Source: Candidatus Iainarchaeum sp.
Lineage (GTDB): Archaea > Iainarchaeota > Iainarchaeia > Iainarchaeales > GCA-2688035
DNA: 64,000 nt
Direction of reading: 5' to 3'
Assembly (NCBI GenBank): GCA_017610205.1
Contig: JAFCCL010000001.1
Span: 81,883-145,882 of the forward strand
Shown here in pieces: positions 7,108 through 50,025 of the stretch (positions are counted from its first letter, which is position 1; the number at the start of each line of letters is the position of its first letter). The notes under the pieces are model-generated. The model was not told the DNA's origin, ran no database searches, and saw nothing but the letters and a program-made list of their open reading frames with translations. Made by a program: the position numbers and the translations under genes.

Positions 7108-8204
7108 ATCTCCGCTTTTATGAATTCTTTTTCCCTTCTCTCACTTAGGTAAGCATCAAAATATCCTATGACTACTCTGTAATATTTTTCCTCATGCTTT
7201 GGTTTGACAAGTTCAAGTAAACCGCAGGCTGTAATTGTTTCTCCTTTCAAAGCCTGTTGTACAAAAGGAATTGAATATGTTACAATTCTTTTTATTGGAA
7301 TTGCATTGTCAATTTTGGGTGTTTTGTGGTTGCCTTCTATTAACTTTGTTTTTTCCACTTCATAAAAGCCAGGTCTTACATGGCTGTTATAATGGTCGCT
7401 TACAATTGCTTTTATTGTTGCAAGTCCTTTTGGCTCATATTCTGCTTCTTCCCATTTGAACCATGTTTCTTCCTGTTCTTCAACAGTGAAAAGAGTAAAA
7501 ACTGTTTCTCCAAATAATCCTTCATATTTTTTTCTTTTCATATGTTTTACATATTCTTTCTCTGTAAAGTGTGAAGATTCAGATGTCTTATGTTCTTTGT
7601 AATATTCTGTCCATTCCTTGTCAGTTTTCCATTTGAGCTTTTCATGCTTTGCTTTTTTCAAAAAATCAAGTATTTTCCACCCATTTTCCTTTCCATAAAT
7701 TATCATGTCAATGTCAGACTTTCCAAAGGTGTAATTTCCAAGCAATGTTGAATGCGTTATTCCCATACTTTCAGATTTTACTCCGCTTTTTTCAAGCAGT
7801 TTAACTAATTCAATTACTAGTTTTAAATATCGGTCCAAATTCTTTTCTGGAACCTGAAGCAATTCCTGCAATCCCTTTCTTCCGTCATGTACTGTTTTTA
7901 TTTTGCTTTTTGGAACTACATAAAACCAGTTTTTGTGCAAAGGGCAATCATAGATATATTCCGGAAACTTTTTTTTGAATTCGTTTACGTATCCTTCAAG
8001 TTTGTTTTTTGGTGCAAACTGGTTAAATCTTACAAGGCATTTTTCAAACAAAAACCGGTATTTTAATCCTTTTCCAGAAATTGAATCTTTTGGAATATAT
8101 TTTGGCTTTACTATTACAAACCCTTCAGGATGTTCGTTTGCATAGGATTTGCATTGAAAGCCGTCAACAGTGTCTATTAGGGTTGATTCATAAAAATGTG
8201 GCAT
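7104..8204 (-). CDS. Pol-beta-superfamily nucleotidyltransferase-like protein, paralog B (intact GKSDIDMIIYG motif)
   Basis: The central ITHSTLLGNYTFGKSDIDMIIYG fits the minimal nucleotidyltransferase fold motif. The ~140-aa N-terminal and ~150-aa beta-rich C-terminal domains are not assignable from memory. It overlaps paralog A by 4 nt. Confidence 0.5.
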   Translation of the reverse strand: MPHFYESTLIDTVDGFQCKSYANEHPEGFVIVKPKYIPKDSISGKGLKYRFLFEKCLVRFNQFAPKNKLEGYVNEFKKKFPEYIYDCPLHKNWFYVVPKSKIKTVHDGRKGLQELLQVPEKNLDRYLKLVIELVKLLEKSGVKSESMGITHSTLLGNYTFGKSDIDMIIYGKENGWKILDFLKKAKHEKLKWKTDKEWTEYYKEHKTSESSHFTEKEYVKHMKRKKYEGLFGETVFTLFTVEEQEETWFKWEEAEYEPKGLATIKAIVSDHYNSHVRPGFYEVEKTKLIEGNHKTPKIDNAIPIKRIVTYSIPFVQQALKGETITACGLLELVKPKHEEKYYRVVIGYFDAYLSERREKEFIKAEI

Positions 8205-8340
8205 TGATTCACCTTAATCCTGATTAAAAAAATGTGGTTCGCAATTGTTTTAAAACACTGTTTTTTTATCTTTGTACTACTTGAAAAATGTTGTTCTATT
8301 AAAAGGATTATGACTATAAAAATTGTAAAGTAGTGATCTA

Positions 8341-8877
8341 ATGAACGTAAAATCTGGTACAATCTGGTTTTCGGGTTTACATGGTTCTGGAAAAACAACT
8401 ATTGCAAAAGCCATTTCTGAAAAACTTAGATTTAATGGCATAAAAGTTGTTGTATTGGATGGTGATGAATTGAGAAAAGGTCTTTCGGCAGACCTTAACT
8501 ATTCTTTGGAAGAACGCAACAAGCACTTAAAAAGGGTTGCAAACATCTGCAAGATTATTTCAGAAAATGATGTTTTGAATATTGCCTGTGTTGCTTCCCC
8601 AACTGAAAAAAGTAGAACTTATGCAAAAGGAATCATTTCTAATTTTTTTGAAGTTTATATTAAATGTCCTCTACAAGTGTGTGAACAAAGAGATGTCAAA
8701 GGACATTATAAACGTGCAAGGGCTGGAGAAGCTGGTTTTGAAAACTTTTTGGGAATAAATCTTACATTTGAAGAGCCAAAATCAGCAGATTTTGTTCTTG
8801 AAACCGACAAAGAGCCTGTTAATAATTCAGTTGAAAAGCTCTTCAATAAGATTTTGGAAAAAAACTGGCTCAAGTAA
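8341..8877 (+). CDS. cysC: Adenylylsulfate (APS) kinase
   Basis: WFSGLHGSGKTTIA P-loop and overall similarity to CysC; about 178 aa. It is divergently transcribed from the nucleotidyltransferase pair. Confidence 0.85.
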   Translation: MNVKSGTIWFSGLHGSGKTTIAKAISEKLRFNGIKVVVLDGDELRKGLSADLNYSLEERNKHLKRVANICKIISENDVLNIACVASPTEKSRTYAKGIISNFFEVYIKCPLQVCEQRDVKGHYKRARAGEAGFENFLGINLTFEEPKSADFVLETDKEPVNNSVEKLFNKILEKNWLK

Positions 8878-8892
8878 TAATATTTATCTTTT

Positions 8893-9858
8893 TCAATTTT
8901 TTTCCCATTTTTCTTCATATTGTTTTCCAAGTTCTAAAATAGCAGAATAGCATTCTTTGCTTGAATTTTTCTTTATAACATCTATTTTTTCTTTCCGTTC
9001 TGTTTTTGGATGTGGAATAAAACGTTCTTTTGCCATTAATAATTTCATTTCCGGTGTTATTTTTCTTTTCAAAAAATTTGAAATCTTTTCAAGTTCTGGT
9101 TCTGGTTTTGTTGACAATAATTCATATGTAAGAAAATGTATTCTTTTGCTATAGTTGTCAGGCAGTTTTTTTAAAGATTTTATACTCATTTTGTTCAAAG
9201 TTTGCATTGATGTGATTATTCGGTCCATTTCTGACATTTTTGCATATTTATCAGTCCATTGGTATGCAAACCATGGTACTGGTCCATTTTTTCCTTTTAT
9301 TGGAATGCTAAATACTTTTGGGTCTTTGCCCCATCTTTTTCCATAACCTCTTTTAAACCAAGAGTATGTTAGATCAACAGGGTTTCTTTTGATTTTAATT
9401 ACTTTTAATTTTGGGTAAATATCAAAAAAGAGTTTTATATTTGACATGGCTTCATGCAAAACAAACGGAAAAATTTTTTCGCTTTTTTTTATTTTTTGCA
9501 CTGCTGAATCACCGTCTTCTTCAAATAATCGTTTCATATAACTATCTGCCTTTGGAGAATTAGTGATGCTGCTTTTGTCAGAAAAACGAAAATTAAGATT
9601 TCGGCCAATTACCCTGTTATAAACAAAGTTATCAATTTGGCTTCCGATAATGGCTTTTGCAGTTTCTTTTTCAATAAATCCAAGCATATTTAGTTGTGAA
9701 ATTTGTTCAGGTATACTAAAATACAGGAATTTTTCGACATTTTCAAATCCTTCGATTAGGTTTGCTAAAAACATTTTTCCTGCTCTGGTGTGCCCGTCAA
9801 GAAAAATAATATTTTCAACAAGTTTTGCTCTTTCACTTAAATGAATTTCTTTTGACAT
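8893..9858 (-). CDS. PAPS-dependent sulfotransferase (glycan/lipid sulfotransferase family)
   Basis: A 5'-PSB-like FLDGHTRAGKMF motif and a strong 3'-PB motif, KRNPVDLTYSWF (RxPxDxxxS). It is convergent with and adjacent to cysC. Confidence 0.55.
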   Translation of the reverse strand: MSKEIHLSERAKLVENIIFLDGHTRAGKMFLANLIEGFENVEKFLYFSIPEQISQLNMLGFIEKETAKAIIGSQIDNFVYNRVIGRNLNFRFSDKSSITNSPKADSYMKRLFEEDGDSAVQKIKKSEKIFPFVLHEAMSNIKLFFDIYPKLKVIKIKRNPVDLTYSWFKRGYGKRWGKDPKVFSIPIKGKNGPVPWFAYQWTDKYAKMSEMDRIITSMQTLNKMSIKSLKKLPDNYSKRIHFLTYELLSTKPEPELEKISNFLKRKITPEMKLLMAKERFIPHPKTERKEKIDVIKKNSSKECYSAILELGKQYEEKWEKN

Positions 9859-9994
9859 TTATACAAACTCCTTTTTTGATAAGAAAATGTTTTTTAGTTA
9901 TCTTATTTTTAAAATTTAATTAACTAATAAATACTTTTTACTGCAAACATATATATATATTGATTTTTGGTGCATTTTCAATTTATAAATTTCT

Positions 9995-11779
9995 CTATTT
10001 TAACAATCTGATAATTCTTTCAGTTGCTTTTCCATCCTGTTTAAATCCAAATTCATATAAAAATTTGGCTACTTTTTTTTCATGGGCTTTTTTGTTATCT
10101 TTTTCTTTCAAAAACTTTTGAATTGATTTCTTAAAGTTGTCTTTTTTTCCGGTAATTCTTTTAATTCCTTCAAAAAGAGTCTGGTCTTTAGTTTTTCTAT
10201 AGATTGCTGTTGGCTTTTTTAAAGCCATTGCTTCAAGACCAATAATTGGTGAAATGGCTATTACTGCATCTGCACAGTTAATAAGCCGATGTAAATCTGT
10301 TTTATTTAAAAGAATTGCCTTTCCTTTGCTGTTTGTTATTATTTTAGCATAATCTTTTTTGTTTTCAAATGCGTGGATTTTAATAACAAGTTTTGTATTT
10401 TTGATTTCTTTTACTGCTTCCATTGCTGCAGAAGCAATTTCAATTGGCAAAACTTTGTTTTTTTCAACTGGTTGGGTTACAAGTACCACCAACTTTTCTT
10501 TTTTGGAAACACCAATGCTTTTTCTAAAAGAATACCCGTTGGTTTTCTTGTTATACAAAACATCAAAGCGCGGAGACCCTGTAATAGAAATTTTTTTGCC
10601 AGGGACCATTTTTTTTTCCAAATTTTTTTTGTAATGAGGTCCCCAAACAGCAATTTTGTCTGCTACAACTGGTGCAAACCCCCTTATGAAATCAGGTTGG
10701 TTTGTGTTTGCGCTGAAAAGTCCGTGTTGTACAACCACGCTTTTTGCATTAATTTTTTTTGCAAGAAGTACACAAATTCTTTCAAATGGAATCCAATCTT
10801 CCCAAACAACAACTGCACACGGCTTTTTTTCCTTAAACTCTTTCAAAAGCATTTCAATAAGGAAAACAAATTCTGGCCAGTCCCTTTCACTAAAGCGTGG
10901 CATGAATTTGAAAAAAACATCTGCGAAGTTAATGTCATTAAAAACCATTTTTTTTCTAAATTTTGATTTTTCAGAAAGTTCTTTGAAAAGTCCTTTGAAA
11001 AAAATTCTTTTTTCTTTTTTTGTTTTTACAAATCTTTTTGCATTCCATGGCATTAAAATTTTTCTTACAACAAAGTTGTCAAGTGAACTAACTGAAAAAC
11101 TATTGTTTTTTTCAACTTCTTTTGAAAAGCGGTCTAGATAGCCATTACTTTTTACAAAAACAATATCTGCTCCGTTTTTTATGATTATTTTTTCTTTCAA
11201 AATTGAAAAAACTTTTTTTTGAAAATCTGCAATTTTTTTCTTGTTAAAATTTAATTTTCTTTTTTTTTCTAATGGTTGTTCTATTTCAATTTCTTTAAAT
11301 CTTGCAGATGTTGCTTTTGCAACTGCCTTTGCGCAGTCACTTGAAAAACTGTCTTTAATGCCAATAAAAGTTTTGGTTTTTTCACACTTTGCGGCATTAA
11401 TGCCTGAGTTTATTGCAAGGAAAGTTTGTCTAAAAAGGTTGTAAATTGCAAAATCTGAAACAAAACCAAGTGAAATTTCTTTCATTGTGCTTGCCTGTTC
11501 GATTTTTTTGTCAAATTTGTACCAATTTCTTGAAAAAAACAATGCCTTTTTATTAATAAAATAAAGTTCTCTATCTGAAACAAGGTCTGTTTCTTCAAAA
11601 ACTTTAATGTTTTTTGCAAAAATTCTTTGCCCTGGCCAAAATTCAAGACAAATGCATTTTATTATTACATTTGGTTTTTTTGCAGCAAATTTGAGAACTC
11701 CATCAAATTCTTTTCTGTTTGAAGCAAACGCAATAATGTTTTCCATTTTTTTTCTGTTTGAAGAAGTGATTTTTTCCAT
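9995..11779 (-). CDS. GT-B-fold polysaccharide biosynthesis protein (CDP-glycerol glycerophosphotransferase TagF / KpsC-like)
   Basis: 594 aa. The C-terminal half has a VVQHGLF...WGPHY...ITGSPRFD...KIHAFEN pattern reminiscent of the TagF/Glyphos_transf and capsule-biosynthesis families. Confidence 0.4.
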   Translation of the reverse strand: MEKITSSNRKKMENIIAFASNRKEFDGVLKFAAKKPNVIIKCICLEFWPGQRIFAKNIKVFEETDLVSDRELYFINKKALFFSRNWYKFDKKIEQASTMKEISLGFVSDFAIYNLFRQTFLAINSGINAAKCEKTKTFIGIKDSFSSDCAKAVAKATSARFKEIEIEQPLEKKRKLNFNKKKIADFQKKVFSILKEKIIIKNGADIVFVKSNGYLDRFSKEVEKNNSFSVSSLDNFVVRKILMPWNAKRFVKTKKEKRIFFKGLFKELSEKSKFRKKMVFNDINFADVFFKFMPRFSERDWPEFVFLIEMLLKEFKEKKPCAVVVWEDWIPFERICVLLAKKINAKSVVVQHGLFSANTNQPDFIRGFAPVVADKIAVWGPHYKKNLEKKMVPGKKISITGSPRFDVLYNKKTNGYSFRKSIGVSKKEKLVVLVTQPVEKNKVLPIEIASAAMEAVKEIKNTKLVIKIHAFENKKDYAKIITNSKGKAILLNKTDLHRLINCADAVIAISPIIGLEAMALKKPTAIYRKTKDQTLFEGIKRITGKKDNFKKSIQKFLKEKDNKKAHEKKVAKFLYEFGFKQDGKATERIIRLLK

Positions 11780-20470: not shown

Positions 20471-21406
20471 TTAGGTATCTGCAAACAGGTGATATACTCC
20501 GTGGTGGAATTTGTCTTCCGCAATCATTTCGTCAATAGTTCTTTCAAATCTTCCCTGTTCTGAAAGAACATTTTTTGAAAGGATTTTTTTAGAAAATTTT
20601 AGTATATCCATTGATTCCCAAACCACCAGGCATTTGCGAACGCCGTGTTTTTTCAAAAGCCTGTAAAACTCCTTTGTTTTTTCCACTCCCAAAAAATCAC
20701 AATGTACTTCAATAAACAGCTGAAGATGTCCTGTTTCCTTAAAAGTTTTTTTCATTCCTTTCAGTATCTCAAATTCGTATCCTTCAACATCCATTCTTAC
20801 AATATCTGGAAGCCGTTTGTCTTTGAGAAAAGAATCAAGGGTAGTAACTTCAACAGGAACTGTTTCCCCTGTTTGATCCAAATCAATATTTTTGCAAAAG
20901 GTTGACAGGTTTGATTGCTTTGAAACAAAAATATCCTGCTTTCCGTTCTTGTCTCCAACAGCTTTGTTAAAAACCTCAATGTTTTTGTAATTATTTGCAT
21001 CAATGTTTTTCTTCAGCAACTCAACATTTCCAATAATTGGTTCTATTGCGTAAACTTTTCCTTTTGGGCCAACAGCCTTTGCTTCCATTAGCACATAATA
21101 GCCAATGTTTGCTCCAATGTCGGCAATAACCTGTCCTGATTTCAGCCTTTTCTGGAATTCAACTGTTGCATGAGCTTCTCGTATTCCATTAAGGTATAAT
21201 TCTGATGAAAGCCCTTTGTCGTCTCTTATGTTAAGAAATATTTTGCTTCCCTGCACGTCTTTTAAGACAAAATCCTCTCTATGTCTCATTTTTGCAATTG
21301 CCATTTTTATTCCTGTAACACCTCGGTCAGCTTTTATTAGCATAATTTTTATTCCTCGTTGAATAAAAGTTGCAGGGCTGTCTTCTAAAAGTCTACTCCA
21401 ATTCAA
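20471..21406 (-). CDS. FkbM-family SAM-dependent methyltransferase
   Basis: VIADIGANIGYYV...VYAIEP motif typical of FkbM (Methyltransf_21). Confidence 0.7.
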   Translation of the reverse strand: MNWSRLLEDSPATFIQRGIKIMLIKADRGVTGIKMAIAKMRHREDFVLKDVQGSKIFLNIRDDKGLSSELYLNGIREAHATVEFQKRLKSGQVIADIGANIGYYVLMEAKAVGPKGKVYAIEPIIGNVELLKKNIDANNYKNIEVFNKAVGDKNGKQDIFVSKQSNLSTFCKNIDLDQTGETVPVEVTTLDSFLKDKRLPDIVRMDVEGYEFEILKGMKKTFKETGHLQLFIEVHCDFLGVEKTKEFYRLLKKHGVRKCLVVWESMDILKFSKKILSKNVLSEQGRFERTIDEMIAEDKFHHGVYHLFADT

Positions 21407-22872
21407 TCTTCTCTCCTCCTCTTTGATTTTACAACATACTTTATAAATGTCTTTCCTCCCTTCACTAATCTTGGTATTTCGCTTGGTTGTGTGACTGCCT
21501 GCAGTGCTTTTCCCATCATATAACTTGGTCTGAAATAAAATTCTTTTCTTGCTCTGTCACACCATTCAACCATTTCCTTGTTTGATAGTTCGGGCATTGA
21601 CACCATGCAATTATGCCACCCGTTTTCGTCAATCCACTGCCTAAAATCTTCTGATACAAGATGTCCTTTTTTTCTAAAATGTTCGTATGAAGCTGTTCCT
21701 GGATAAACCATAATTGGAAAAAATTGTGCTGAATCTGGGTTTAGTCTTTTTGCAAGTTCAATTGTTGCCCTGATTGTTTCTTTATTGTCCCCTGGGTTTC
21801 CAACCATAAAACACCCGTGTACAAGAACACCTGCTTTTTTTGCATCTTTTATAAATTGTTCCATTTTTGGAACAATTGTTCCTTTTGAAACATTGTTTAA
21901 AATTTCCTGGCTTCCTGATTCAAATCCAACACACAAAAGCCTGCAGCTAGCTTTTTTCATAAGTTTTAATGTTTCCAATGGCACATCAGCCCTTGCATTG
22001 CAGCTCCACTTTACTTTTATTCCTGCTTTTATTTTTTCTTTGCAAAAATTGTCAACTCTTTTGTGGTCTGCAGTAAAGGTGTCGTCTTCAAGGAAAACCT
22101 CTTTTATTCCTGGAAAGCTTTTCACAATAAATTCAAATTCTTTTATTACATTTGCAATGCTTCTTTTTCTGTAAGGACCTGGGTTAAGGTTCTGCACCCA
22201 GTTGCAAAACTTGCAGTTAAAAGGGCATCCTCTGCCTGTAACAATTGCAACCTCTGGATAAAGATTGGCACTATAAAAATAATCCTTATAATTCAAATGC
22301 TTTTTGTAAACCCTGCTGACAAAAGGCAGTTTGTCAAGGTTTTTTATTTTTTCCCTTAACTTGTTTTTTACAATTTTTGCACCTTGTTTAAATGCAATTC
22401 CTTTAACCTTTGCAAGCTTTGGCTTTTTCTTCTCCAGTTCTTTTGCCAACGCCCTTAAAGTGTAATCGTATTCCTGCATGCACACTGCATCAATTGCTTT
22501 GCTCATCTTCATTGTTTCAACAGGCAAAGCACTTACGTGTGTGCCAACCAATACTCCAAAGCACCTGTGGGCTTTCTTTACCTTTCGCAAAACTTCGACA
22601 TCATTGTGGATGCTTGCAGTGCTTGTATCCAACACCACCATGTCTGGTTTAAATTTTCTTACAATTGCAAGCACTTTCTTTTCGCTTAAAGGAATGGCTG
22701 GTGCGTCAACAAGCTTTACTTCGTGTCCTGCTTTTTCCAAAACGCCTGTGGCATATGCAAGCCACATTGGATAATAGATTGTTCCGCCTTTTGTAACGGC
22801 AGGCGACCTGCTGCTCCTGCTATACTTTGGAAAGAACGGGGGATTTAACATTAAAATTCGCATGAAATTCAC
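21403..22872 (-). CDS. B12-binding domain radical SAM protein (class B radical SAM, probable methyltransferase)
   Basis: An N-terminal cobalamin-binding-like domain and a GRGCPFNCKFC radical SAM cysteine motif. It overlaps the FkbM gene by 4 nt. Confidence 0.8.
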   Translation of the reverse strand: MNFMRILMLNPPFFPKYSRSSRSPAVTKGGTIYYPMWLAYATGVLEKAGHEVKLVDAPAIPLSEKKVLAIVRKFKPDMVVLDTSTASIHNDVEVLRKVKKAHRCFGVLVGTHVSALPVETMKMSKAIDAVCMQEYDYTLRALAKELEKKKPKLAKVKGIAFKQGAKIVKNKLREKIKNLDKLPFVSRVYKKHLNYKDYFYSANLYPEVAIVTGRGCPFNCKFCNWVQNLNPGPYRKRSIANVIKEFEFIVKSFPGIKEVFLEDDTFTADHKRVDNFCKEKIKAGIKVKWSCNARADVPLETLKLMKKASCRLLCVGFESGSQEILNNVSKGTIVPKMEQFIKDAKKAGVLVHGCFMVGNPGDNKETIRATIELAKRLNPDSAQFFPIMVYPGTASYEHFRKKGHLVSEDFRQWIDENGWHNCMVSMPELSNKEMVEWCDRARKEFYFRPSYMMGKALQAVTQPSEIPRLVKGGKTFIKYVVKSKRRRED

Positions 22873-26123: not shown

Positions 26124-26157
26124 CTCATATACTTATTAACTCAGGATTTGTTTGAAT

Positions 26158-27672
26158 ATGCAAAAAAAGCAAAAAGTTGTACTTTTTTTACCAAAAGCAA
26201 GAAAGCACACATTTCACGGAACTTTGCCTGTTGCCTTGCTTAAACTTGCTTCAATGGTTGACAGAAAAAAGTTTGATTTGGATTTAATTATTGCAAAACC
26301 AAATGTAGATTATGAAAAGCAGGTGGTTGAAGCATCCAAGGGTGCTATGTGTGTTTGTTTAAGTGTTCTGACTGGTAATGATATTACTAATGCATTGACG
26401 ATTACAAAAAAAATCAGAGTTGTTTCAAAGGCTACTGTTGTTTGGGGTGGCTGGCATGCAAGTATTTTTCCAGAGCAAACTCTTGAGAATCAATATGTTG
26501 ACATTGTAATCAGGGGACAGGGGGAAAGAACTTTTCAAAAGCTAATTGAACGTCTTGCTGAAAAGAAAAGCCTAAAAGGATTACTTGGTGTTTCCTACAA
26601 AGAAGGGGGAAAAATTAAGCGCAATGAAGACCGGCCTTTTGAGGACATAAACAATTTTCCGCCAATTTCCTACAATTTAGTTAATTTAGAAGATTATATT
26701 TCAACCTTTAATGGAATGCGTGGCATGGTTAGTTTTACCAGCCAGGGCTGTCCTTTCAACTGCAAATTCTGTGCAGAGCCATTGGTTTACAAACAGCAAT
26801 ATTCTGCGCTTTCAAATGACAGGATTCTTGACGAATGGGAATTTTTTGTTAAGGAACATAATATTAAGTTTGTTGGAATTACTGACGACAATTTTTTTGT
26901 TAATGAAGCAAAAATAATTGACTTTTGTCAAAAGCTTCTTAAAAGAAAGCTTGGAGTAAAATGGGGCAAGGCTTGTGGAAGGGTTAGACAAATGCTTGCG
27001 TTCAAAGACAGCACTTGGCAGCTTATTGCCGATGCAGGTTGTATGGATATTGAAATTGGAGACGAAAGTGGAATTCAGAGCACTCTTGATTTTATTAACA
27101 AACAGTTGTCTGTTGAAGAAATTGTGGAATTTACAAATAAATGCAGAAAGTATGGTTTTGAGGTAATGCACAATTGGCTTTATGGAATTCCTTTGCCTCA
27201 GTTCAAAACAATGAACAAAAAGGAAATTAATGCCTGGATTTGGAAAGAGTGGCTTGCAATGTTTGATGTAATGGATAAATGCCACCACAAATACAAGGAT
27301 TATGATGAAGTTAGAGTTTGTCCATACTATCCCTATCCTGGAAATCCACTCTTTGACCTGTCATGCGAGCTTGGGTTCAAACCGCCAACAAAGCTTGAAA
27401 ACTGGGCTAACCTCAAACCAGCTATATGGCTTGATGACTCCTGGAATGACAAGCGAAGAATGCTTTTGCATTTTATTTTTCCATATGCATCGGATTTTTA
27501 TGCTGAAAGGCACATGAAAAAATTTAGGCTGGTTCAAAGATTTTTCCACGAAACAGCAAAGTTTAGGTGGAAGTACAGATATTTTGGATTTCCATTAGAC
27601 TACAGGTTGTATGAGTTTTACACCAATTTCAGAATGAAAATCACAGGCGTTTCTGCAACTGAGCACGATTAA
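26158..27672 (+). CDS. B12-binding domain radical SAM protein, paralog 1
   Basis: SQGCPFNCKFC radical SAM motif and an N-terminal B12-binding-like domain. It is about 60% identical to the downstream paralog. The start is taken at the ATG at 26158. Confidence 0.8.
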   Translation: MQKKQKVVLFLPKARKHTFHGTLPVALLKLASMVDRKKFDLDLIIAKPNVDYEKQVVEASKGAMCVCLSVLTGNDITNALTITKKIRVVSKATVVWGGWHASIFPEQTLENQYVDIVIRGQGERTFQKLIERLAEKKSLKGLLGVSYKEGGKIKRNEDRPFEDINNFPPISYNLVNLEDYISTFNGMRGMVSFTSQGCPFNCKFCAEPLVYKQQYSALSNDRILDEWEFFVKEHNIKFVGITDDNFFVNEAKIIDFCQKLLKRKLGVKWGKACGRVRQMLAFKDSTWQLIADAGCMDIEIGDESGIQSTLDFINKQLSVEEIVEFTNKCRKYGFEVMHNWLYGIPLPQFKTMNKKEINAWIWKEWLAMFDVMDKCHHKYKDYDEVRVCPYYPYPGNPLFDLSCELGFKPPTKLENWANLKPAIWLDDSWNDKRRMLLHFIFPYASDFYAERHMKKFRLVQRFFHETAKFRWKYRYFGFPLDYRLYEFYTNFRMKITGVSATEHD

Positions 27673-27758: not shown

Positions 27759-27794
27759 ATGCTATTGAATCACTTTTTTTTGGGTTTGACTAAT

Positions 27795-29312
27795 ATGCCG
27801 GTAAGACAAAAAATAATTCTTTTTTCTCCAAAACCAAGAAGACATACTTACAGCAACAGTATTCCTGTTGCATTGCTCAAAATTGCGTCAATGATTGACC
27901 GTAAAAAATACGAATCGGTAATTGTTTCAGCAACACCAAAATATGACTACGAAACCCAGATTTTGAAGGATTCAAAAGATGCATTGTGCTTTGCTGTTCG
28001 CGTGTTAACAGGACACGACATAATTGAAGCAATAGAGCTAATAAAAAAAATCAAAAAAGTTAACCCAAACCTTCCTATTGTATGGGGTGGATGGCATGGT
28101 GCAATTTTTCCAGATCAAACTCTTGAAAGCAGCTATGCTGATATAATTATAAGGGGTCAGGGTGAGCGCACTTTCAAAGAACTTGTTGAAAGGTTGGTTA
28201 CAAAAAAAGATCTTAAAGGATTACCAGGCATTATTTACAAAGACAAAAGCGGAAAAATAATTCACAACCCTGAAAGGCCTTTTGAAGACATAAATAATTT
28301 TCCGGACATTCCCTACGATCTCATTAACATAGACGATTACGTTGACAACTTTGACGGTTTGCGTGCGGCATTTTATGTCACAAGCCAAGGCTGTCCTTTT
28401 AAATGTAAATTTTGCGCGGAACCACTTGTATTCAAGCAACGATGGTCTTCCCTAAGCAACGAGCGCATTCTCAAAGACTGGGAATACCTTTCAAAAAAAG
28501 GCATTGAATTTATCATAATTGGTGATGACAACTTTTTTGTAAACGAAAAAAAAGTCAAAGACTTTTGTGAAAAATTCATTGCAAAAAAACTTCCGTTAAA
28601 ATGGGGCCGTGTTTCTGGAAGGGTTAGGCAAATGCTTGCTTTTTCTGACGAAACCTGGCAGCTTATCAAAGACACTGGCTGTACAGACATACAGGTTGGC
28701 GCAGAAACAGGCGACCAAAATGTGCTTGACTACATTGGAAAAGAGCTTACTGTTGACGAAATAGTGCAATTTATTGAAAGGGCAAGGAAATTCAAAATAA
28801 AGGCAACTCCTGCCTTCATTCTCGGTCTTCCAACAGAGGAATTCAGAAAAGCTTCATCAAAAGAAATTCAAAAACTTTTAGACAAACAGTGGAATGCATT
28901 TTTTGACGTAATGGACAGGTGCTATAAAGACCACAAGGACTATGACGAAATCCGTTTGTTTGCCTACGATCCTTATCCTGGAAACCCACTTTATGATTTA
29001 TCCTGTGAGCTTGGTTTTGACGCGCCAAAAAAGCTTGAAGAATGGGCAATAATTCGACCTGCTCCTTGGATAAAAGAAAGTCTTCGTGAAAAAATAAGAA
29101 TGCTTCAATATTTTTTGTTTCCCTATGCTCGCGATGGTTACGCAGGCAGACACATAAAAAAATTCAAGCTGTTGCAAAAGCTTTTTCACAAAAGCGCACA
29201 ATGGCGATGGAAGCACAGATTCTTTGCACTGCCAATAGAATACAAAATGTACCGGGCTTATACAAACCTTAGAACCAAAAAAACAGGGCAATCTGCAACA
29301 GACCATGAATAA
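27795..29312 (+). CDS. B12-binding domain radical SAM protein, paralog 2
   Basis: SQGCPFKCKFC motif. Its start is aligned to paralog 1 (MPVRQKIILF). It is preceded by the same 62-nt leader as paralog 1. Confidence 0.8.
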   Translation: MPVRQKIILFSPKPRRHTYSNSIPVALLKIASMIDRKKYESVIVSATPKYDYETQILKDSKDALCFAVRVLTGHDIIEAIELIKKIKKVNPNLPIVWGGWHGAIFPDQTLESSYADIIIRGQGERTFKELVERLVTKKDLKGLPGIIYKDKSGKIIHNPERPFEDINNFPDIPYDLINIDDYVDNFDGLRAAFYVTSQGCPFKCKFCAEPLVFKQRWSSLSNERILKDWEYLSKKGIEFIIIGDDNFFVNEKKVKDFCEKFIAKKLPLKWGRVSGRVRQMLAFSDETWQLIKDTGCTDIQVGAETGDQNVLDYIGKELTVDEIVQFIERARKFKIKATPAFILGLPTEEFRKASSKEIQKLLDKQWNAFFDVMDRCYKDHKDYDEIRLFAYDPYPGNPLYDLSCELGFDAPKKLEEWAIIRPAPWIKESLREKIRMLQYFLFPYARDGYAGRHIKKFKLLQKLFHKSAQWRWKHRFFALPIEYKMYRAYTNLRTKKTGQSATDHE

Positions 29313-32984: not shown

Positions 32985-34075
32985 TTCCCAACCTGAAGCT
33001 TGAGTCTAATCCATTGAAGCAGAACTTTCAAAAGTTCTGTTGCGTTGAATGCAACATTTGACGTGAGCTGGCATTCAAACGTGCAAAAACATTTGCTTTC
33101 TCTTATGGATTTTGCAATCTTTCTATTTTCTTTTGTTGAAAGCAGTTTTTTCAAATTAAAGTCAAAGTTTTTGAGATTTCCAAGAAAAAGATCCTGCCTG
33201 ATTTCACAGGCAAATACATTACCATTTGAATAAATGATGCAATTTGTTGTAGCAGCATAACATGGTAACTGAAATTTGTTTTCCTTCAAAGTTTTGAGAA
33301 TCACCTGCTTATATCTTTTGTTTAAACATGTATAAAAGTCCCCAAAGATTTGGTGGCCCTTATATTTCTTTTTTGCAAGATCTGTTGCAATTTCTTTGTT
33401 CACTTTCATATATTGTTCAATTGTTTCCTTTGATTTCCTTGCGTTTTTTGGTTCGCCTCTTAAAAAATTTATCTGAAACTGGTTTATATCAAAGTCTGAA
33501 AGCATTTTTTTGTACACAGACATCGTTTCTTGCGCATTGTCTTCACTAATAGTGTAAATTACTCCAATCTTTAGGTTTTTGAATCTTATTTTAAGTTCTA
33601 AAAGCTTTGCTAAAGTTTTGCACGCATTTGAGAATGCATTTTTTGATCCTCTTATTTGATTATGTATTTTCTCAGTGCCATCAATTGAAACTGAAATATT
33701 GAAAATTATATCAGGGTTTTCTTCAGCCATCTTGGTTGCTTTTGCTACAATTTTTTCAGTAAACGTGCCGTTTGTTGGAATTGAAATTATTTTTACACTG
33801 CTGTTTTTTGCAAACAATGCTGCGATTTTGTCAATGTCTTCTCTGAGAAATGGTTCACCCCCTGTTAGACTTACATGTATCAAACTCGGCATGCTTTTTG
33901 ATATTTTTTCAATTTCTTTGAGTGGAATTTCTTCAGGCTTGTTCAGTGATTTGTGAAAAAAACAGTGGCTGCATTTAAGATTGCATCTGCTTGTGATATA
34001 AAGAATCACATAAACAGGAAGCATGTTTTTCTTGAATAAGACATTTTTTGCCTGTTTCAATATTGAAATTTTCAT
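32981..34075 (-). CDS. Radical SAM / SPASM-domain protein
   Basis: YITSRCNLKCSHCF (CxxxCxxC) plus a C-terminal Cys-rich region (CYAATTNC...CEIR...CFCTFEC) typical of a SPASM/twitch auxiliary cluster. Confidence 0.75.
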   Translation of the reverse strand: MKISILKQAKNVLFKKNMLPVYVILYITSRCNLKCSHCFFHKSLNKPEEIPLKEIEKISKSMPSLIHVSLTGGEPFLREDIDKIAALFAKNSSVKIISIPTNGTFTEKIVAKATKMAEENPDIIFNISVSIDGTEKIHNQIRGSKNAFSNACKTLAKLLELKIRFKNLKIGVIYTISEDNAQETMSVYKKMLSDFDINQFQINFLRGEPKNARKSKETIEQYMKVNKEIATDLAKKKYKGHQIFGDFYTCLNKRYKQVILKTLKENKFQLPCYAATTNCIIYSNGNVFACEIRQDLFLGNLKNFDFNLKKLLSTKENRKIAKSIRESKCFCTFECQLTSNVAFNATELLKVLLQWIRLKLQVGK

Positions 34076-35484
34076 AAAAAACCGCCTCTTTTCAACAGCT
34101 TGTTTTTCCTGTTAATAAATTCTCTTTCCATCTTAAGCGACTGCTTGTTTAAAATAACATCAAAACACATTTTCAACACCTTTAGCGGGTGGAAAATTGC
34201 CTTGTAGAGTAGGAACGTAAAGTAAAGTTCTTTAACATATTTATTCACTTCCAAACTGTTTGGATACCATCCAGGTACTGTTCCTATATTTAGGTCGTCA
34301 ATTCCCTTTATATTTTTGTTAAAATATTTTTTCCTAATTTCTGTATTTGGATATGGAATACATGGAAACACACCAACTTCATCCACTCCAATCCTTGCAA
34401 GCCTTTTCAGATATGCCCTTGTCTTCTGTTTATCATCTTCAGTTTCAACTGGTAATCCAACGACAAAGAACGCGGTTGTTTTTATTCCAACATTCTTACA
34501 ATTTTTTATACAATTTGCAATGTTTTCAAGATCAATATGCTTGTTGTAAACTTCTTTAAGGATTCTTTGACTTCCTGATTCAGGTGCAAACACCAACAAT
34601 TTGCATCCGCTTTCTTTCATTAGCTTAAGTGTTTCAAGGTCAAGGTACTCGGATCTTACTCCGTTTGGTGTTGTCCAAGTTATCCTGAGTTTTTTTTTCT
34701 TAATAAGCCTGAAGATTTTTTTTGCTCTCTCAATATTAAGCGTAAGGTTGTCATCTTCTATTTCAAATTCAGTTGTGCCATATTTTTCAATACAATGTTG
34801 AATTTCTTTAACAAAATTTTCTGGTTTTCTTGCAACCCAATGCCTGCGCCAGAATACAGCGCTTGAGCAATAGGTACAATTGTATGGACATCCCCTTGAA
34901 GAAATTATTGGAGTGAATTTTTTGTTTACTGGCCCGTGGCTCCTTTTGGCTTTCCAGTAATTTTCTAATGGAAAAAGATGCCTTGCTGGAAATGGCAGCA
35001 TATCAAGATTTTCAATGAACTCTTTTTTTTCCCTGCTTACAATCTTTCCATTTTTTATATATGCGATTCCATTAATTGCCTCAATTGAACCACTTTTTTT
35101 TGACAGTTTGTCAATAAGTTTTAACAGAGTTTCCTCTGCTTCTCCAAGTACTGCATAGTCTACTCCCTTCTCAAGGAACCTTTTATAATTTGCTGTTGCC
35201 TCGTTTCCGCCAATTATTATCTTTTTTTTCGGAAATCTCTTTTTAAGTCTTGAAACCAGATCAAGATAAACCTTGTGCTGTGAAGTAAAGTTTGCTGAAA
35301 TGCAGATTAATTCACTTTCTTTAGGAATCATTTCGATTAATTCTTCAATATCAAGGCCTCTAAGGAATAATCTGTGTTTCCAATCGCTTACCTTCTCTAT
35401 CCCAAGCCCAAGAGCGTCAATTACCTTTACCTTAAAACCTTTTTTTAGAAGATAGGCTGCAAGGTATGCAAGGCCCAATGGCAT
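34072..35484 (-). CDS. B12-binding domain radical SAM protein
   Basis: N-terminal LGLAYLAAYLLKKGFKVKVID (B12-binding-like) and SRGCPYNCTYC radical SAM motif. It overlaps the SPASM gene by 4 nt. Confidence 0.8.
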   Translation of the reverse strand: MPLGLAYLAAYLLKKGFKVKVIDALGLGIEKVSDWKHRLFLRGLDIEELIEMIPKESELICISANFTSQHKVYLDLVSRLKKRFPKKKIIIGGNEATANYKRFLEKGVDYAVLGEAEETLLKLIDKLSKKSGSIEAINGIAYIKNGKIVSREKKEFIENLDMLPFPARHLFPLENYWKAKRSHGPVNKKFTPIISSRGCPYNCTYCSSAVFWRRHWVARKPENFVKEIQHCIEKYGTTEFEIEDDNLTLNIERAKKIFRLIKKKKLRITWTTPNGVRSEYLDLETLKLMKESGCKLLVFAPESGSQRILKEVYNKHIDLENIANCIKNCKNVGIKTTAFFVVGLPVETEDDKQKTRAYLKRLARIGVDEVGVFPCIPYPNTEIRKKYFNKNIKGIDDLNIGTVPGWYPNSLEVNKYVKELYFTFLLYKAIFHPLKVLKMCFDVILNKQSLKMEREFINRKNKLLKRGGFL

Positions 35485-44471: not shown

Positions 44472-46634
44472 CTAATTTGCATAAAGTGCTTCTTTGTTTA
44501 CCTTGAATATTCTCATTCCGGCTGCATTAAAAACTTCGCCAAAGTATTTCATTGTCTCATCTTCGTGGAACCAAAGCTTTGAAAGCATGCTTTCGTTTAC
44601 AGCAGGATTTGTAATATAAAGCTCTGAATTGTCCTCTGCTCTATAAACATACAATGGAACAACTCCCTCATACATCTGGTTTGAAACACTTGTCCATTTT
44701 GCAGGAATAGTTCCCATTTGATCTGCAGGAATATTATTTGTTCCACATGCAAACCCTGCTTCGCTTTGACTGCAAGGCATTGCAGCATGCGGTGCAACAA
44801 GGAATTGTATTATGCGAGGGTCGCTGCTGTCCATTGTATCATACCCATAATTTCCAAAAGACCCGATTTTGAGGAATGTATCACTGTCAAGTACGATATA
44901 ATCAAAATCATAGTCTCTTGCAATTTTTAACGCATTTTCAAGGCTGCTTTCAATAACAAAAAGTGAAAAGTCGCGGTTTCCCTCAAAACTCATATTCCTG
45001 TTATCAGCAGAAACCGCCCTTTCTCCAATAAAACTAATCCAATGCCCTTCATCCCACCAGTTGAAAAATTTTGCATCCTCAGGAGTGTTTGCAGGGTCCT
45101 GCATCCAGTGCAGTGTTGCCTTCCAGTCAGGATAACCGCCTTCAATGTGCGGAACCTTGTCTGGCACAAAAATTGTAGCAGAAGCAATTCCAACCAAAAG
45201 CATAAAGCCAAGGCAAAGCACAACAAGCTTTTGCTCAAGGTCTGTTCTTCCTTTAAGGTAATAAAACATTTCTGCAGCAATCACACCAGCAGCTGCCGCT
45301 ATTGGCAGGCCAAAAGTGTAAGTGAATTTGAGCTTGTACCACGCCATAAAAAAAGTAATCATTATCCAAAAGAAAATCAAGACACTAAGATGGTCTTTTT
45401 TGTTCCTGTAAAACATTATTGGAATCAAAATCATTGCAAGCCATGGGAAAATAATTAATGCATTATATTTTATTCCAAAAAACTGGTGGCCGGTGTTTTC
45501 CTCCCCAACAGTCATTCCAAGAACCGAGTTTTCCTCAAACAATTTCGGGGTTGTCATAAAAGTAAGAGCCAGTGAAATTACTGCAATATAAAGCAAAACA
45601 ACTGCAATAATATTAATTGTTTTATTTCCTGATTTTCTTTTGCCAACCTCCCTGTTTGCATAAGCAAGATACACTATAAATGCTCCGATTGCAAGAACAA
45701 CTGCGACTGCTGCCGAAAAACCCATTGCTTCAGGCATTCCAAAAGCCGCTGCCGCCTTTGAAACAGAATTTGTTGCATAACTCAAAGCACTAGTATGCCA
45801 GTTTGCGCCATAATTTAATGCAGCAATTACCCAAAAAATAACAAAAGAAATTGCAAAAAGCTTAACAAAATCAACAAGCTTTTTGAAACCCATTTTTGTA
45901 TAAATCCCAATCACACCAAAGAAAACATAAAGCCCTAATACCAGAGGGATAAGCAAGTACATATCCCAGGTTATTGCCATTAATCCAAAGAAAATTCCAG
46001 AAAGCACTGCATTAATTATTCCCTTTTTATTAAACACAGGATTCTTAACTGCTCTTGCAAAGAAAACCAATCCAATCACAAGCCACAAAAACCCAAGGCT
46101 GTCTTCTTCAAAAAAACCTGCAAGCGTTCTGTAAACATAGCTTGGAATAACAGCCGCAATCAAGGCCATTACATAGCCTGCTTTTTTGTTGTAAAGTTCC
46201 TTTCCAAAGAAAAACATTGCAGCAACAGTTAATGCCCCAAAAAGAGCCGGCAAAATTTTAACAAACAATATCCAGGTGTCCTTATCATAAGGCGCTCCCA
46301 AAGTTGCAACCTTATAAATGCCTGCAGTAAACTGCCAAAAGAACTGGTTTCTTGGAGGAGCAACTCCTCCTTCAACAAAATAATATGCAGTTGGATCAAC
46401 AGCAGGAACAACCCCTGTTTGCAAAAGCTCTCCAGTCATCCTTGCATGGTAATAGGAATCAAAACCAAACATATACTCATACTTTAAAAGATGCCCTCTT
46501 ACGCCAAAAGCAAGAGCAAAAATCAAAAAAAGCAGAAAAAGCTGTTTTCTGTCAACATTCTTTATTTTGCCAACAATGTCAGATGCATTAACAAGCTCAG
46601 GCATTCTAGGTTCCCTCAATAAAAAAAAGAGCAA
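44472..46634 (-). CDS. aglB: Oligosaccharyltransferase AglB (STT3 homolog)
   Basis: 720 aa, with a multi-TM N-terminal domain containing FGFDSYYHAR (STT3 DxxY...R-type loop motif) and a periplasmic domain with FFNWWDEGHW (WWDYG variant). Confidence 0.85.
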   Translation of the reverse strand: MLFFLLREPRMPELVNASDIVGKIKNVDRKQLFLLFLIFALAFGVRGHLLKYEYMFGFDSYYHARMTGELLQTGVVPAVDPTAYYFVEGGVAPPRNQFFWQFTAGIYKVATLGAPYDKDTWILFVKILPALFGALTVAAMFFFGKELYNKKAGYVMALIAAVIPSYVYRTLAGFFEEDSLGFLWLVIGLVFFARAVKNPVFNKKGIINAVLSGIFFGLMAITWDMYLLIPLVLGLYVFFGVIGIYTKMGFKKLVDFVKLFAISFVIFWVIAALNYGANWHTSALSYATNSVSKAAAAFGMPEAMGFSAAVAVVLAIGAFIVYLAYANREVGKRKSGNKTINIIAVVLLYIAVISLALTFMTTPKLFEENSVLGMTVGEENTGHQFFGIKYNALIIFPWLAMILIPIMFYRNKKDHLSVLIFFWIMITFFMAWYKLKFTYTFGLPIAAAAGVIAAEMFYYLKGRTDLEQKLVVLCLGFMLLVGIASATIFVPDKVPHIEGGYPDWKATLHWMQDPANTPEDAKFFNWWDEGHWISFIGERAVSADNRNMSFEGNRDFSLFVIESSLENALKIARDYDFDYIVLDSDTFLKIGSFGNYGYDTMDSSDPRIIQFLVAPHAAMPCSQSEAGFACGTNNIPADQMGTIPAKWTSVSNQMYEGVVPLYVYRAEDNSELYITNPAVNESMLSKLWFHEDETMKYFGEVFNAAGMRIFKVNKEALYAN

Positions 46635-48831: not shown

Positions 48832-48950
48832 GATTAGCAGCTTTAAGACCGCTCCAAGCAAAAACTCAGTGCAAAACCTTTTCCCCGCAGGTCTTAACTT
48901 CCGGGTTCGAGATGGGACCGGGTGTTTCCCCTGTAGCATGGCCGCTAATC
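48832..48950 (-). rRNA. rrf: 5S ribosomal RNA (unlinked to other rRNA genes in this window)
   Basis: The minus strand reads GAUUAGCGGCCAUGCUACAGGGGAAACACCCGGUCCCAUCUCGAACCCGGAAGUUAAGACCUGCGGGG...GCUGCUAAUCG. The loop-C region is universally conserved. The 5' and 3' ends form a 10-bp helix I (GAUUAGCGGC/GCUGCUAAUC). An oligo-T run follows. Confidence 0.75.
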
Positions 48951-48995: not shown

Positions 48996-49382
48996 TTAAA
49001 ACTCTCTGTAGCGGGCATTTCCAGCGTGGCCAAAAACATCCAGCAAAAGGCTTTTGTTTGAGCCAAAATGTGATCTTTTAACATTTACTTTTTCTTTTCC
49101 GAGATTGGCTTCAATCCTATTTAAGGCAGATAATCCTTTCTCAGAGCCAGCTATCTTGTTTGACAAGTGTGCAAAAGGCACAAGCACTACATTTTCACTT
49201 CCGACTTCTTTGCACATTTTGATAATTTCTTCAGCAAGACCTTTTGCAACAAGAATTGGCTCGTCTTTTTTTTCAACGGTTACAAATGCAACAATGCAAT
49301 CATTGCATTCCTGCTTTTGGTCTTTCAAAGCCTCTGGTTTTATTTTAGCTGGCCTGTTGGAGAATGAATCAAACTCGGTCAT
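48996..49382 (-). CDS. Free-standing archaeal ThrRS N-terminal editing-domain homolog (tRNA-Thr_ED; D-aminoacyl-tRNA-deacylase-like fold)
   Basis: CIVAFVTVEKKDEP...VVLVPFAHLSNKIAGSEKGLSALNRIEANLG...VKRSHFGSNKSLLLDVFGHAGN aligns block by block with the Pyrococcus ThrRS editing domain (VLVAFISVEK...VYPFAHLSSELAKP...APFGYYK...CKGHP). The start is taken at an internal ATG (49382) after the TBP stop; the ORF-track N-terminal extension overlaps TBP. Confidence 0.55.
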   Translation of the reverse strand: MTEFDSFSNRPAKIKPEALKDQKQECNDCIVAFVTVEKKDEPILVAKGLAEEIIKMCKEVGSENVVLVPFAHLSNKIAGSEKGLSALNRIEANLGKEKVNVKRSHFGSNKSLLLDVFGHAGNARYREF

Positions 49383-49419
49383 ATAGTGCTTGCAGTGAAA
49401 GAGAAGGGTTCTCACAAAA

Positions 49420-50025
49420 TCACTTATTTTTTTTCTTTCCTGGCTTTTTTGCTGCAGATTTTTTTTTTGCTGGCTTTTTTGCAACCTTTTTCTTCTTGCC
49501 AATAACTAATTCCTCTGCAACCTTTAGGCCCTTTCTCAAAAGGCTTTCCCTTTTTGCACCTGCACAAATCATTTTGCCGTTTTTGAACAGCAAGAGCGTG
49601 AGCTTTGGGTCGGCAATTCTTAGGATTGCTCCTGGAAACTGTTCTGGCTCATACTCTACGTTGTCCAAATCCATTGCTGTTTGAAACAAGTCAAGGTTTT
49701 GGTTCAGGTTTGCTGTTGCAACCAAATTCACAACATTGTACTTTACAGTTTTTTGAATCTTTACCTGTTTTTGAATTCCGTGAATTAGCTTGCTTGCCTT
49801 TCTAATAGCCTGTGCAATCTGCTTTTCGCTGCTTGCACCGCTGCAAATAACCTTTCCGTTTTTGAACAAAAGCATTGAAACTTTTGGCTCCTTCAGTTTC
49901 AAAATTGCTCCAGGAAACTGCTCTGGCTCATACTCAATATTTGGAATGCTCACAGCTAAATTATATAAGTCAAGTGTGGCATTCAAATTGGATGAGGCAA
50001 CCAAATTCACAATAGTATACTTCAT
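49420..50025 (-). CDS. tbp: TATA-box binding protein with basic lysine-rich C-terminal tail
   Basis: Two imperfect direct repeats, KYTIVNLVASSNL... and KYNVVNLVATANL..., with EYEPEQFPGAIL present twice. The C-terminus is GKKKKVAKKPAKKKSAAKKPGKKKNK. Confidence 0.9.
   Translation of the reverse strand: MKYTIVNLVASSNLNATLDLYNLAVSIPNIEYEPEQFPGAILKLKEPKVSMLLFKNGKVICSGASSEKQIAQAIRKASKLIHGIQKQVKIQKTVKYNVVNLVATANLNQNLDLFQTAMDLDNVEYEPEQFPGAILRIADPKLTLLLFKNGKMICAGAKRESLLRKGLKVAEELVIGKKKKVAKKPAKKKSAAKKPGKKKNK

Follow-up and report, generated by a model that had tools for sequence, protein, structure and literature searches.

Archaeal threonyl-tRNA synthetases (ThrRS) carry an editing domain (ED) whose active site has been dissected in the P. 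abyssi protein (Pab-NTD). Within 6 Å of the scissile bond lie the side chains of P80, F81, A82, H83, Y120, K121 and, from the partner subunit, E134 (Ahmad et al. 2015, PMC4491819). E134 sits on the segment 131-136, which enters the partner pocket, and holds the L-amino group (PMC4491819); F117 is stacked on A76 (PMC3845328). Activity is lost or severely compromised in H83A (PabNTD) and in K121M, and Y120A and E134A are still active and specific, making Y120 and E134 dispensable (Ahmad et al. 2015, PMC4491819). Serine and threonine are told apart mainly via main-chain atoms (PMC4491819). Chemistry assisted by the tRNA 2'-OH has been proposed in papers on DTD (PMC3845328).

The domain is also known as a protein in its own right. 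Mukai et al. 2017 defined a stand-alone, single-domain 'tRNA-Thr-ED' (mBio, PMC5424206, Text S1). The members discussed there are linked to SepCysS, come from methanogens and MSBL1/Hadesarchaea, and keep the canonical motifs (PMC5424206, PMC8762117); DPANN members linked to SepCysS are mentioned in a 2022 follow-up (PMC8762117). Data Set S1 of the 2017 paper holds CPR members ending in ...HFGYHKSLLLEIKGHPGSFRYREFY, which is the signature of the subfamily described below (PMC5424206). A 2024 review of editing enzymes includes ThrRS-ed and DTD/ATD, and the single-domain form is absent from it (PMC11295145). Our own literature search on DPANN ThrRS or on characterised stand-alone EDs returned only the Mukai papers. 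NCBI names the homologues 'threonyl-tRNA synthetase editing domain-containing protein'.

Gene model and domain identity

The window (the whole stretch of DNA that we analysed, 64 kb long) contains an open reading frame on the minus strand whose longest version begins with TTG at 49502 and ends with TAA at 48998-48996. The features at this locus are:

48832..48949, minus strand: 5S rRNA gene (Rfam RF00001, 68.7 bits against a gathering threshold of 38), 46 nt downstream of the ED stop codon
48974..48981, minus strand: TATTTAAA, a TATA-box-like element read from the sequence, about 28 nt upstream of the 5' end of the 5S gene
48996..49415, minus strand: stand-alone tRNA-Thr_ED gene, 139 aa plus stop, from GTG 49415-49413 to TAA 48998-48996
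49382..49384, minus strand: internal ATG, Met12 of the 139-aa protein and the start in the public gene call P0001 (128 aa)
49420..50025, minus strand: tbp, encoding a TATA-box-binding protein (TBP) of 201 aa (PF00352, 169.7 bits; also matched by NCBIfam TBP models)

[quoted passage not shown] Apart from the start coordinate, this was borne out. The 128-aa protein contains each of the motifs VAFVTVEK, VLVPFAHLS, HFGSNK and GHAGN, and it scores 80.3 bits against PF08915 (E 1.9e-22; gathering cut-off 30.2), with 82.3 bits for the long ORF. Given this score, the motifs and the tbp neighbour, the homology is far beyond chance. No other Pfam family matches the ED protein at E ≤ 0.01.

Structural comparison points the same way. 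A sequence search of the PDB matched the P. abyssi ThrRS editing domain (1y2q, E 4e-14), residues 1-130 aligning with residues 1-130, and also returned the M. jannaschii and A. pernix editing domains. An AF2 model built from 29 family members has a mean pLDDT of 90.4, and in Foldseek this predicted structure superposes on 3pd4_A with E 7.6e-16, a TM score of 0.92 and an rmsd of 1.4 Å, at about 30% identity to the P. abyssi domain (3pd4/1y2q). The M. jannaschii and A. pernix domains follow, and DTD and ATD rank far lower (TM 0.58-0.75). NCBIfam models for archaeal ThrRS and for the Ser-tRNA(Thr) hydrolase align with their N-terminal editing part only and score far below their cut-offs; for NF011500 the score is 57.6 bits against a cut-off of 362, with the ED part alone aligned. 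The protein consists of one Pfam domain and is without an anticodon-binding domain. Judged by its sequence, the gene encodes a paralogue of the DTD-fold editing domain found in archaeal ThrRS, one that is free-standing and has a single domain.

The most likely start of the gene is the GTG at 49415, giving a protein of 139 aa. The TGA of tbp occupies 49422-49420, the GTG follows 4 nt later in the ED frame, and from the tbp stop up to the ATG at 49382 the frame offers no other start codon. The long ORF overlaps tbp only in codons 1-28; its codons 30-40 (V-RTLLFHCKHY) lie past the tbp TGA and match the conserved strand β1, and PF08915 aligns residue 31 of the long ORF to profile position 2. Among 36 homologues, 29 span 99-100% of the 139-aa version (the other seven, left out of this count, are P0001 itself, four N-terminally shorter calls and two fragments); those that align are 137-142 aa long and begin M[KR]xLLFH. 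The first ten residues of the AF2 model have a pLDDT of about 95, and residues 2-18 form a strand. A start at ATG 49382 would cost residues 1-11, the strand β1 with H7 that is conserved both across the family and among cis editing domains, and is probably not the true start. We set the gene at 48996-49415 on the strength of the PF08915 alignment, the homologue lengths, the Pab-NTD register over residues 1-130 and the AF2 strand. The suggestion that the 40 N-terminal residues of the long ORF overlap tbp and go untranslated is therefore right for 28 codons and wrong for 11 residues, which are the conserved first strand.

A read-through fusion of TBP and ED is excluded because the two genes lie in different frames. 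Their 4-nt spacing suggests co-transcription, and tbp and the ED gene probably share one transcript. Two further observations concern this region. The TBP has a lysine-rich C-terminal tail after its two TBP repeats (KKKKVAKKPAKKKSAAKKPGKKKNK; window 49420-49500, the 3' end of tbp), and a similar tail is present on the TBP of the related locus L003 (9410-9997). Antisense to the ED gene, an ORF of 110 aa at 49054-49386 on the plus strand almost certainly just shadows the low-GC coding strand.

The editing pocket and the subfamily that shares it

In an alignment of 29 family members, whose numbering coincides with that of Pab-NTD, the residues P80, F81, A82, H83, L84 and S85, H116, F117, G118 and S119, and K121 are invariant in 29 of 29, and so are G129, H130, G132, R135 and R137. 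The window protein keeps all of the adenosine-binding and water-positioning residues (P80-F81-A82-H83, F117-G118 and K121). Two canonical pocket side chains, Y120 and the cross-subunit E134, are missing: the window protein has N120 and A134, and across the subfamily position 120 is N, H or D and position 134 is a small hydrophobic residue (A, V or I, once C). The pocket positions 119, 120 and 131-136 are swapped for the signature HFGS[NHD]K ... GHxGNxR[YF]RE[FY]. Loss of Y120 and E134 is compatible with activity, since both are dispensable in Pab-NTD.

The key residues argue that this is not a pseudogene. Moreover, comparison with L003, the closest relative for which we have DNA (71% amino acid identity), gives a dN/dS of about 0.16, and on these sequence data it is an intact gene evolving under purifying selection. 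A pseudogenised fragment with broken catalytic residues, which would have undone the original prediction, is not what the locus contains.

How widespread is the signature? A profile search of 1.84 billion cluster representatives returned 883 proteins at E ≤ 1e-3, 25 of them at E ≤ 1e-30. Among the best 150 of the 883, 55 have [HST]FG[SYTF][NHD]K ... GHxG[NS]x[RA][FY]R, none longer than 191 aa, and 47 have the canonical PYAHLS ... PFG[WY]YK ... GHPL[SA]ELSR. All proteins of at least 200 aa among these best 150 are canonical, being true ThrRS and ThrRS-ed-like proteins. Across three collections, all 93 loci (69 distinct ED sequences) have the signature, and their stand-alone proteins end at, or a few residues past, R[YF]RE[FY]. 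In a rough neighbour-joining tree they fall on one long branch, apart from the cis domains, with archaeal and bacterial members interleaved.

The stand-alone EDs form a subfamily of their own, about 139 aa long, with members in both DPANN archaea and CPR bacteria. Homologues that carry a name stem from 'Candidatus Pacearchaeota', Woesearchaeota and Nanoarchaeota metagenome-assembled genomes (MAGs), and full-length members at 40-48% identity from CPR/Patescibacteria MAGs (Paceibacterota, Nomurabacteria, Saccharimonadales, Parcubacteria and Peribacteria). At least one of the contigs, L034, is certainly bacterial: some 830 nt upstream of its ED gene lies a gene for tmRNA (Rfam, 107.7 bits).

The best identity to the window protein is 74% among GTDB species representatives and 70% among the 80 metagenome loci listed. 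The nearest GTDB relatives, at 72-74%, lie on contigs in bins labelled Chloroflexi and Falkowbacteria. JAFCCG010000001.1 (L015/L003), in the bin 'Chloroflexi bacterium AB_1215_Bin_59', carries archaeal genes (TBP, Rpb4, L21e, AglB and 5S) and is plainly archaeal. On JAFCBY010000076.1 (L016), in the bin 'Candidatus Falkowbacteria bacterium AB_1215_Bin_116', the 74%-identical ED is accompanied by a 5S rRNA gene. Both contigs are probably mis-binned or mislabelled.

ThrRS of the lineage and the genomic neighbourhood

The 64-kb window contains no thrS, as searched with Pfam on 10 of its 12 ORFs of at least 400 aa and with tblastn using ThrRS cores. We therefore put the question of cis editing to the lineage. 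Our seed was P0091, a ThrRS fragment whose ED scores best against the stand-alone profile; another ThrRS seed, P0124, is of the Tiddalikarchaeum type, and the Pacearchaeota clade is out of its reach. Members of the P0091 clade are named 'threonine--tRNA ligase' of Candidatus Pacearchaeota, Nanoarchaeota or Candidatus Nanoarchaeia archaeon, one bearing only the label '[archaeon]'.

The complete members of this clade (about 560-620 aa) all combine PF08915, PF00587 and PF03129. Indeed, every one of the 111 ThrRS of at least 540 aa in this Pacearchaeota/Nanoarchaeota-labelled clade has a cis ED, with P80 present in 111 and H83, F117, G118, Y120 and K121 in 110 each, followed by GHPL[SA]ELS. Tiddalikarchaeum, Woesearchaeota and Aenigmarchaeota likewise have ThrRS with these three domains. 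The only ThrRS matches without PF08915 are truncated ones on contigs of 1.5-1.7 kb. Because ThrRS of the lineage edits in cis, the stand-alone ED is an additional paralogue; most likely it exists alongside a cis-editing ThrRS and does not replace one. The proposal that it edits Ser-tRNA(Thr) in trans for a split ThrRS devoid of editing finds no support, given the 111 cis domains and an ED protein that has no anticodon-binding domain.

Among the ED and ThrRS matches we found no pair in one assembly. The nearest evidence for coexistence, suggestive only, comes from the Hainich H43 groundwater series, where two ED contigs (445,132 and 252,413 bp) are similar in coverage to a ThrRS contig (257,951 bp). 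As a separate observation, on a Hainich Nanoarchaeota contig (L013/L014, 2002-2322) a LAGLIDADG homing-endonuclease gene, encoded on the other strand, overlaps the thrS 3' end.

The immediate neighbours of the ED gene in the window are tbp, the 5S rRNA gene and methyltransferases. The order tbp then ED, with a gap of 3-4 nt, is found in the window and in L003 (3 nt), whose TBP shows an identity of about 92% across the full length and of 96.6% across a core of 175 aa; cluster data suggest the same order on the contig of P0002. The order ED then 5S is kept in the window (46 nt), L003 (46 nt), L095 (208 nt) and L016 (615 nt), and the full tbp-ED-5S order is limited to the closest relatives. The TATA-like TATTTAAA suggests that the 5S gene may have its own promoter. 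This 5S gene is an orphan, in that the window has no 16S or 23S gene, and on present evidence it is a mere neighbour with no share in the function of the ED protein.

Across the 69 distinct ED loci there is no conserved neighbourhood that could hint at a function, and the commonest neighbour family is shared by 5 of them. The 10 kb to either side of the stand-alone EDs are free of thrS. At a number of CPR and DPANN loci, tRNA genes lie 2-82 nt from the stand-alone ED on the same strand:

L046, 9926-9999, same strand as the ED gene: tRNA-Ile
L032, 4422-4498, same strand as the ED gene: tRNA-Lys
L131, 9882-9954, same strand as the ED gene: tRNA-Gln
L041, 166-240, same strand as the ED gene: tRNA-Arg
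L036, 10490-10641, same strand as the ED gene: tRNA-Arg and tRNA-Cys

By a rough estimate, tRNA genes stand beside the ED gene at about 7 of 60 loci, which is above chance. The identities of the adjoining tRNA genes vary, and none of them is tRNA-Thr.

Elsewhere in the window, positions 9995-46634 hold a long cell-surface glycosylation cluster of glycosyltransferases, epimerases and a nucleotide pyrophosphatase. It includes four B12-binding radical SAM proteins (21403-22872, 26152-27672, 27759-29312 and 34072-35484) and AglB/STT3 (44472-46634). At L007, positions 7834-10695 encode a predicted protein of 953 aa that combines the serine recombinase domains Resolvase, Recombinase and Zn_ribbon_recom with all three MnmA-type tRNA methyltransferase domains; it is either an odd fusion or a gene-call merger.

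Proposed function and relation to known editing systems

We favour the reading that the window protein is a further deacylase acting in trans, whose substrate is probably different or broader, and put the probability of this reading at roughly 55%. The original prediction had offered a repurposed deacylase as its fallback, and it is this plausible version that we prefer. By analogy with the solved canonical domains, the protein would form a homodimer and bind A76 at the 3' end of an aminoacyl-tRNA; F117 would stack on the adenine, and the backbone of G118 would touch the ribose. K121 and H83 would place a water molecule, and this water, once activated by the 2'-OH of the tRNA, would hydrolyse the aminoacyl 3'-ester. 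We infer that the protein acts in trans because it has neither a catalytic core nor an anticodon-binding domain. What differs from the canonical enzyme, throughout the subfamily, is the amino-acid pocket, where S119, N/H/D120 and a C-terminal G-N-x-R-[YF]-R-E-[FY] take the place of the canonical residues, the last replacing P-L-[SA]-E-L-S-R.

The preferred substrate is probably not simply the Ser-tRNA(Thr) of the cis domain. We argue for altered specificity because the replacements at positions 116, 119, 120 and 131-136 are fixed and because the subfamily also occurs in bacteria. The ThrRS of CPR bacteria is expected to be of the bacterial type, with an unrelated N2 editing domain. The changed side chains are no proof of a changed specificity, since the canonical domain discriminates through its main chain and tolerates Y120A and E134A. 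A similar guess about altered specificity was made by Mukai et al. 2017 for stand-alone homologues generally (PMC5424206).

A bolder form of this reading, which we advance tentatively and would not yet back against the odds, is that the HFGS[NHD]K ... GNxR[YF]RE[FY] proteins are a distinct class of free-standing deacylase, with a substrate other than Ser-tRNA(Thr), that may have been exchanged between DPANN and CPR. The substrates of such a class could be other mischarged, D-, hydroxyacyl- or acidic aminoacyl-tRNAs; the acidic ones are candidates because two invariant arginines stand where the canonical Glu sits. If this is true, the exchange may be an adaptation of scavenging episymbionts to unbalanced amino-acid pools.

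The most conservative alternative keeps the old substrate. The protein might be a redundant extra sieve: a Ser-tRNA(Thr) hydrolase working in trans that catches mischarged tRNA(Thr) which a cis-editing ThrRS has let go, in the way that AlaX supports AlaRS. Its adenosine pocket and both functionally important residues are intact, the two lost side chains are dispensable in the canonical enzyme, and U73 is present in the tRNA-Thr(GGU) of a Pacearchaeota MAG that carries the ED. On its own, the canonical domain is active and selects its tRNA via U73, according to Novoa 2015 as cited by later papers (PMC8762117, PMC11295145). Against it stand the non-canonical pocket signature, fixed throughout the subfamily, the absence of any genomic link to thrS or tRNA-Thr among our loci, and the occurrence of the subfamily in CPR bacteria, where position 73 of tRNA(Thr) is variable and the N2 domain is expected on ThrRS. 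We regard a simple extra sieve as unlikely, though worth keeping in view. The same bacterial members weigh against the idea that the stand-alone ED serves an ED-less catalytic protein and edits Ser-tRNA(Thr) as ThrRS-ed does. That arrangement has a precedent in Sulfolobus and Aeropyrum (Korencic et al. 2004, as cited in PMC5424206), and a free-standing, intact domain in a window devoid of thrS would fit it. The cis EDs of the 111 clade ThrRS of at least 540 aa, and those of Woesearchaeota, Tiddalikarchaeum and Aenigmarchaeota, make it highly improbable, as does the absence of the anticodon-binding domain of ThrRS-ed (the NF011500 result above).

Could the protein instead be a chiral proofreader that replaces DTD/DTD2 in reduced DPANN and CPR genomes, acting as a deacylase of D-aminoacyl-tRNA or Gly-tRNA(Ala)? 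The AF2 model has a DTD-like fold by Foldseek, the distribution is confined to two groups with reduced genomes, and loss of E134 could shift stereochemical selection. However, PF02580 has no match at E ≤ 0.01 and the structural similarity to DTD is far below that to the ThrRS domain, which leaves this role improbable. The least credible proposal is a decaying gene fragment or chance ORF. The N-terminally short public gene call of 128 aa might be taken to favour it, but the domain is full length with a usable GTG, a dN/dS of about 0.16, invariant motifs, a confident model and many full-length orthologues, and we consider it effectively refuted.

The direct value of the window gene itself is modest. 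It brings a corrected gene model (GTG start, 139 aa) and corrects the inference of a split ThrRS. The survey around it delimits a tight and widespread single-domain editing subfamily of DTD fold, spanning DPANN and CPR, with a fixed non-canonical pocket. Free-standing editing factors (AlaX, ProXp, YbaK, DTD, ATD and CtdA) have repeatedly been found to have substrates of their own, and the subfamily is for that reason a reasonable and cheap target for a deacylation screen.

Among known systems, the archaeal ThrRS editing domains (Pab-NTD, 1Y2Q/3PD4; MjNTD, 4RRF; ApNTD, 4RR6) are closest. They share the fold (TM 0.89-0.92, rmsd 1.4-1.6 Å) and, at about 25-31% identity, the length and the register over residues 1-130. 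Unlike them, the window protein is not fused to a synthetase, and in its subfamily Y/W119 has become S, Y120 has become N, H or D, and P116 has become H. The canonical cross-subunit GHPL[SA]ELSR has given way to GHxGNxR[YF]RE[FY], which is also the end of the protein.

The window protein is neither ThrRS-ed nor DTD. ThrRS-ed is likewise a homologous editing domain acting in trans (NF011500; Korencic et al. 2004, as described in later papers), but it has about 390 aa, a degenerate core and an anticodon-binding domain, and its partner is an ED-less ThrRS-cat; here there are 139 aa and no such domain, in a lineage whose ThrRS has its own ED. A set of longer proteins deserves separate mention. Seven of them (P0154, P0155, P0120, P0139, P0148, P0153 and P0122; 510-584 aa) have a canonical ED, a ThrRS-type anticodon-binding domain and a middle without recognisable class II motifs; the contigs that carry some of them reach 384 kb. 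In appearance they are extended versions of crenarchaeal ThrRS-ed with canonical motifs, and they were the best-scoring longer matches; we set them aside as irrelevant to the window lineage. DTD and ATD are likewise free-standing, have a related DTD-like fold and deacylate aminoacyl-tRNA in trans. They differ from the ED protein in sequence (13-19% identity, and PF02580 does not match) and in structure, as their TM scores above indicate.

The nearest kin are the single-domain proteins of Mukai et al. 2017. Like them, the window protein is a single ED with no anticodon-binding domain, and the equivalent of Mj Glu135 is not conserved (A134 here). Unlike the SepCysS-linked group, it follows tbp, has no SepRS or SepCysS neighbour and belongs to the divergent DPANN/CPR branch. 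Proteins of this kind have been known, with function uncharacterised, since that 2017 paper, and the window gene adds a member to them.
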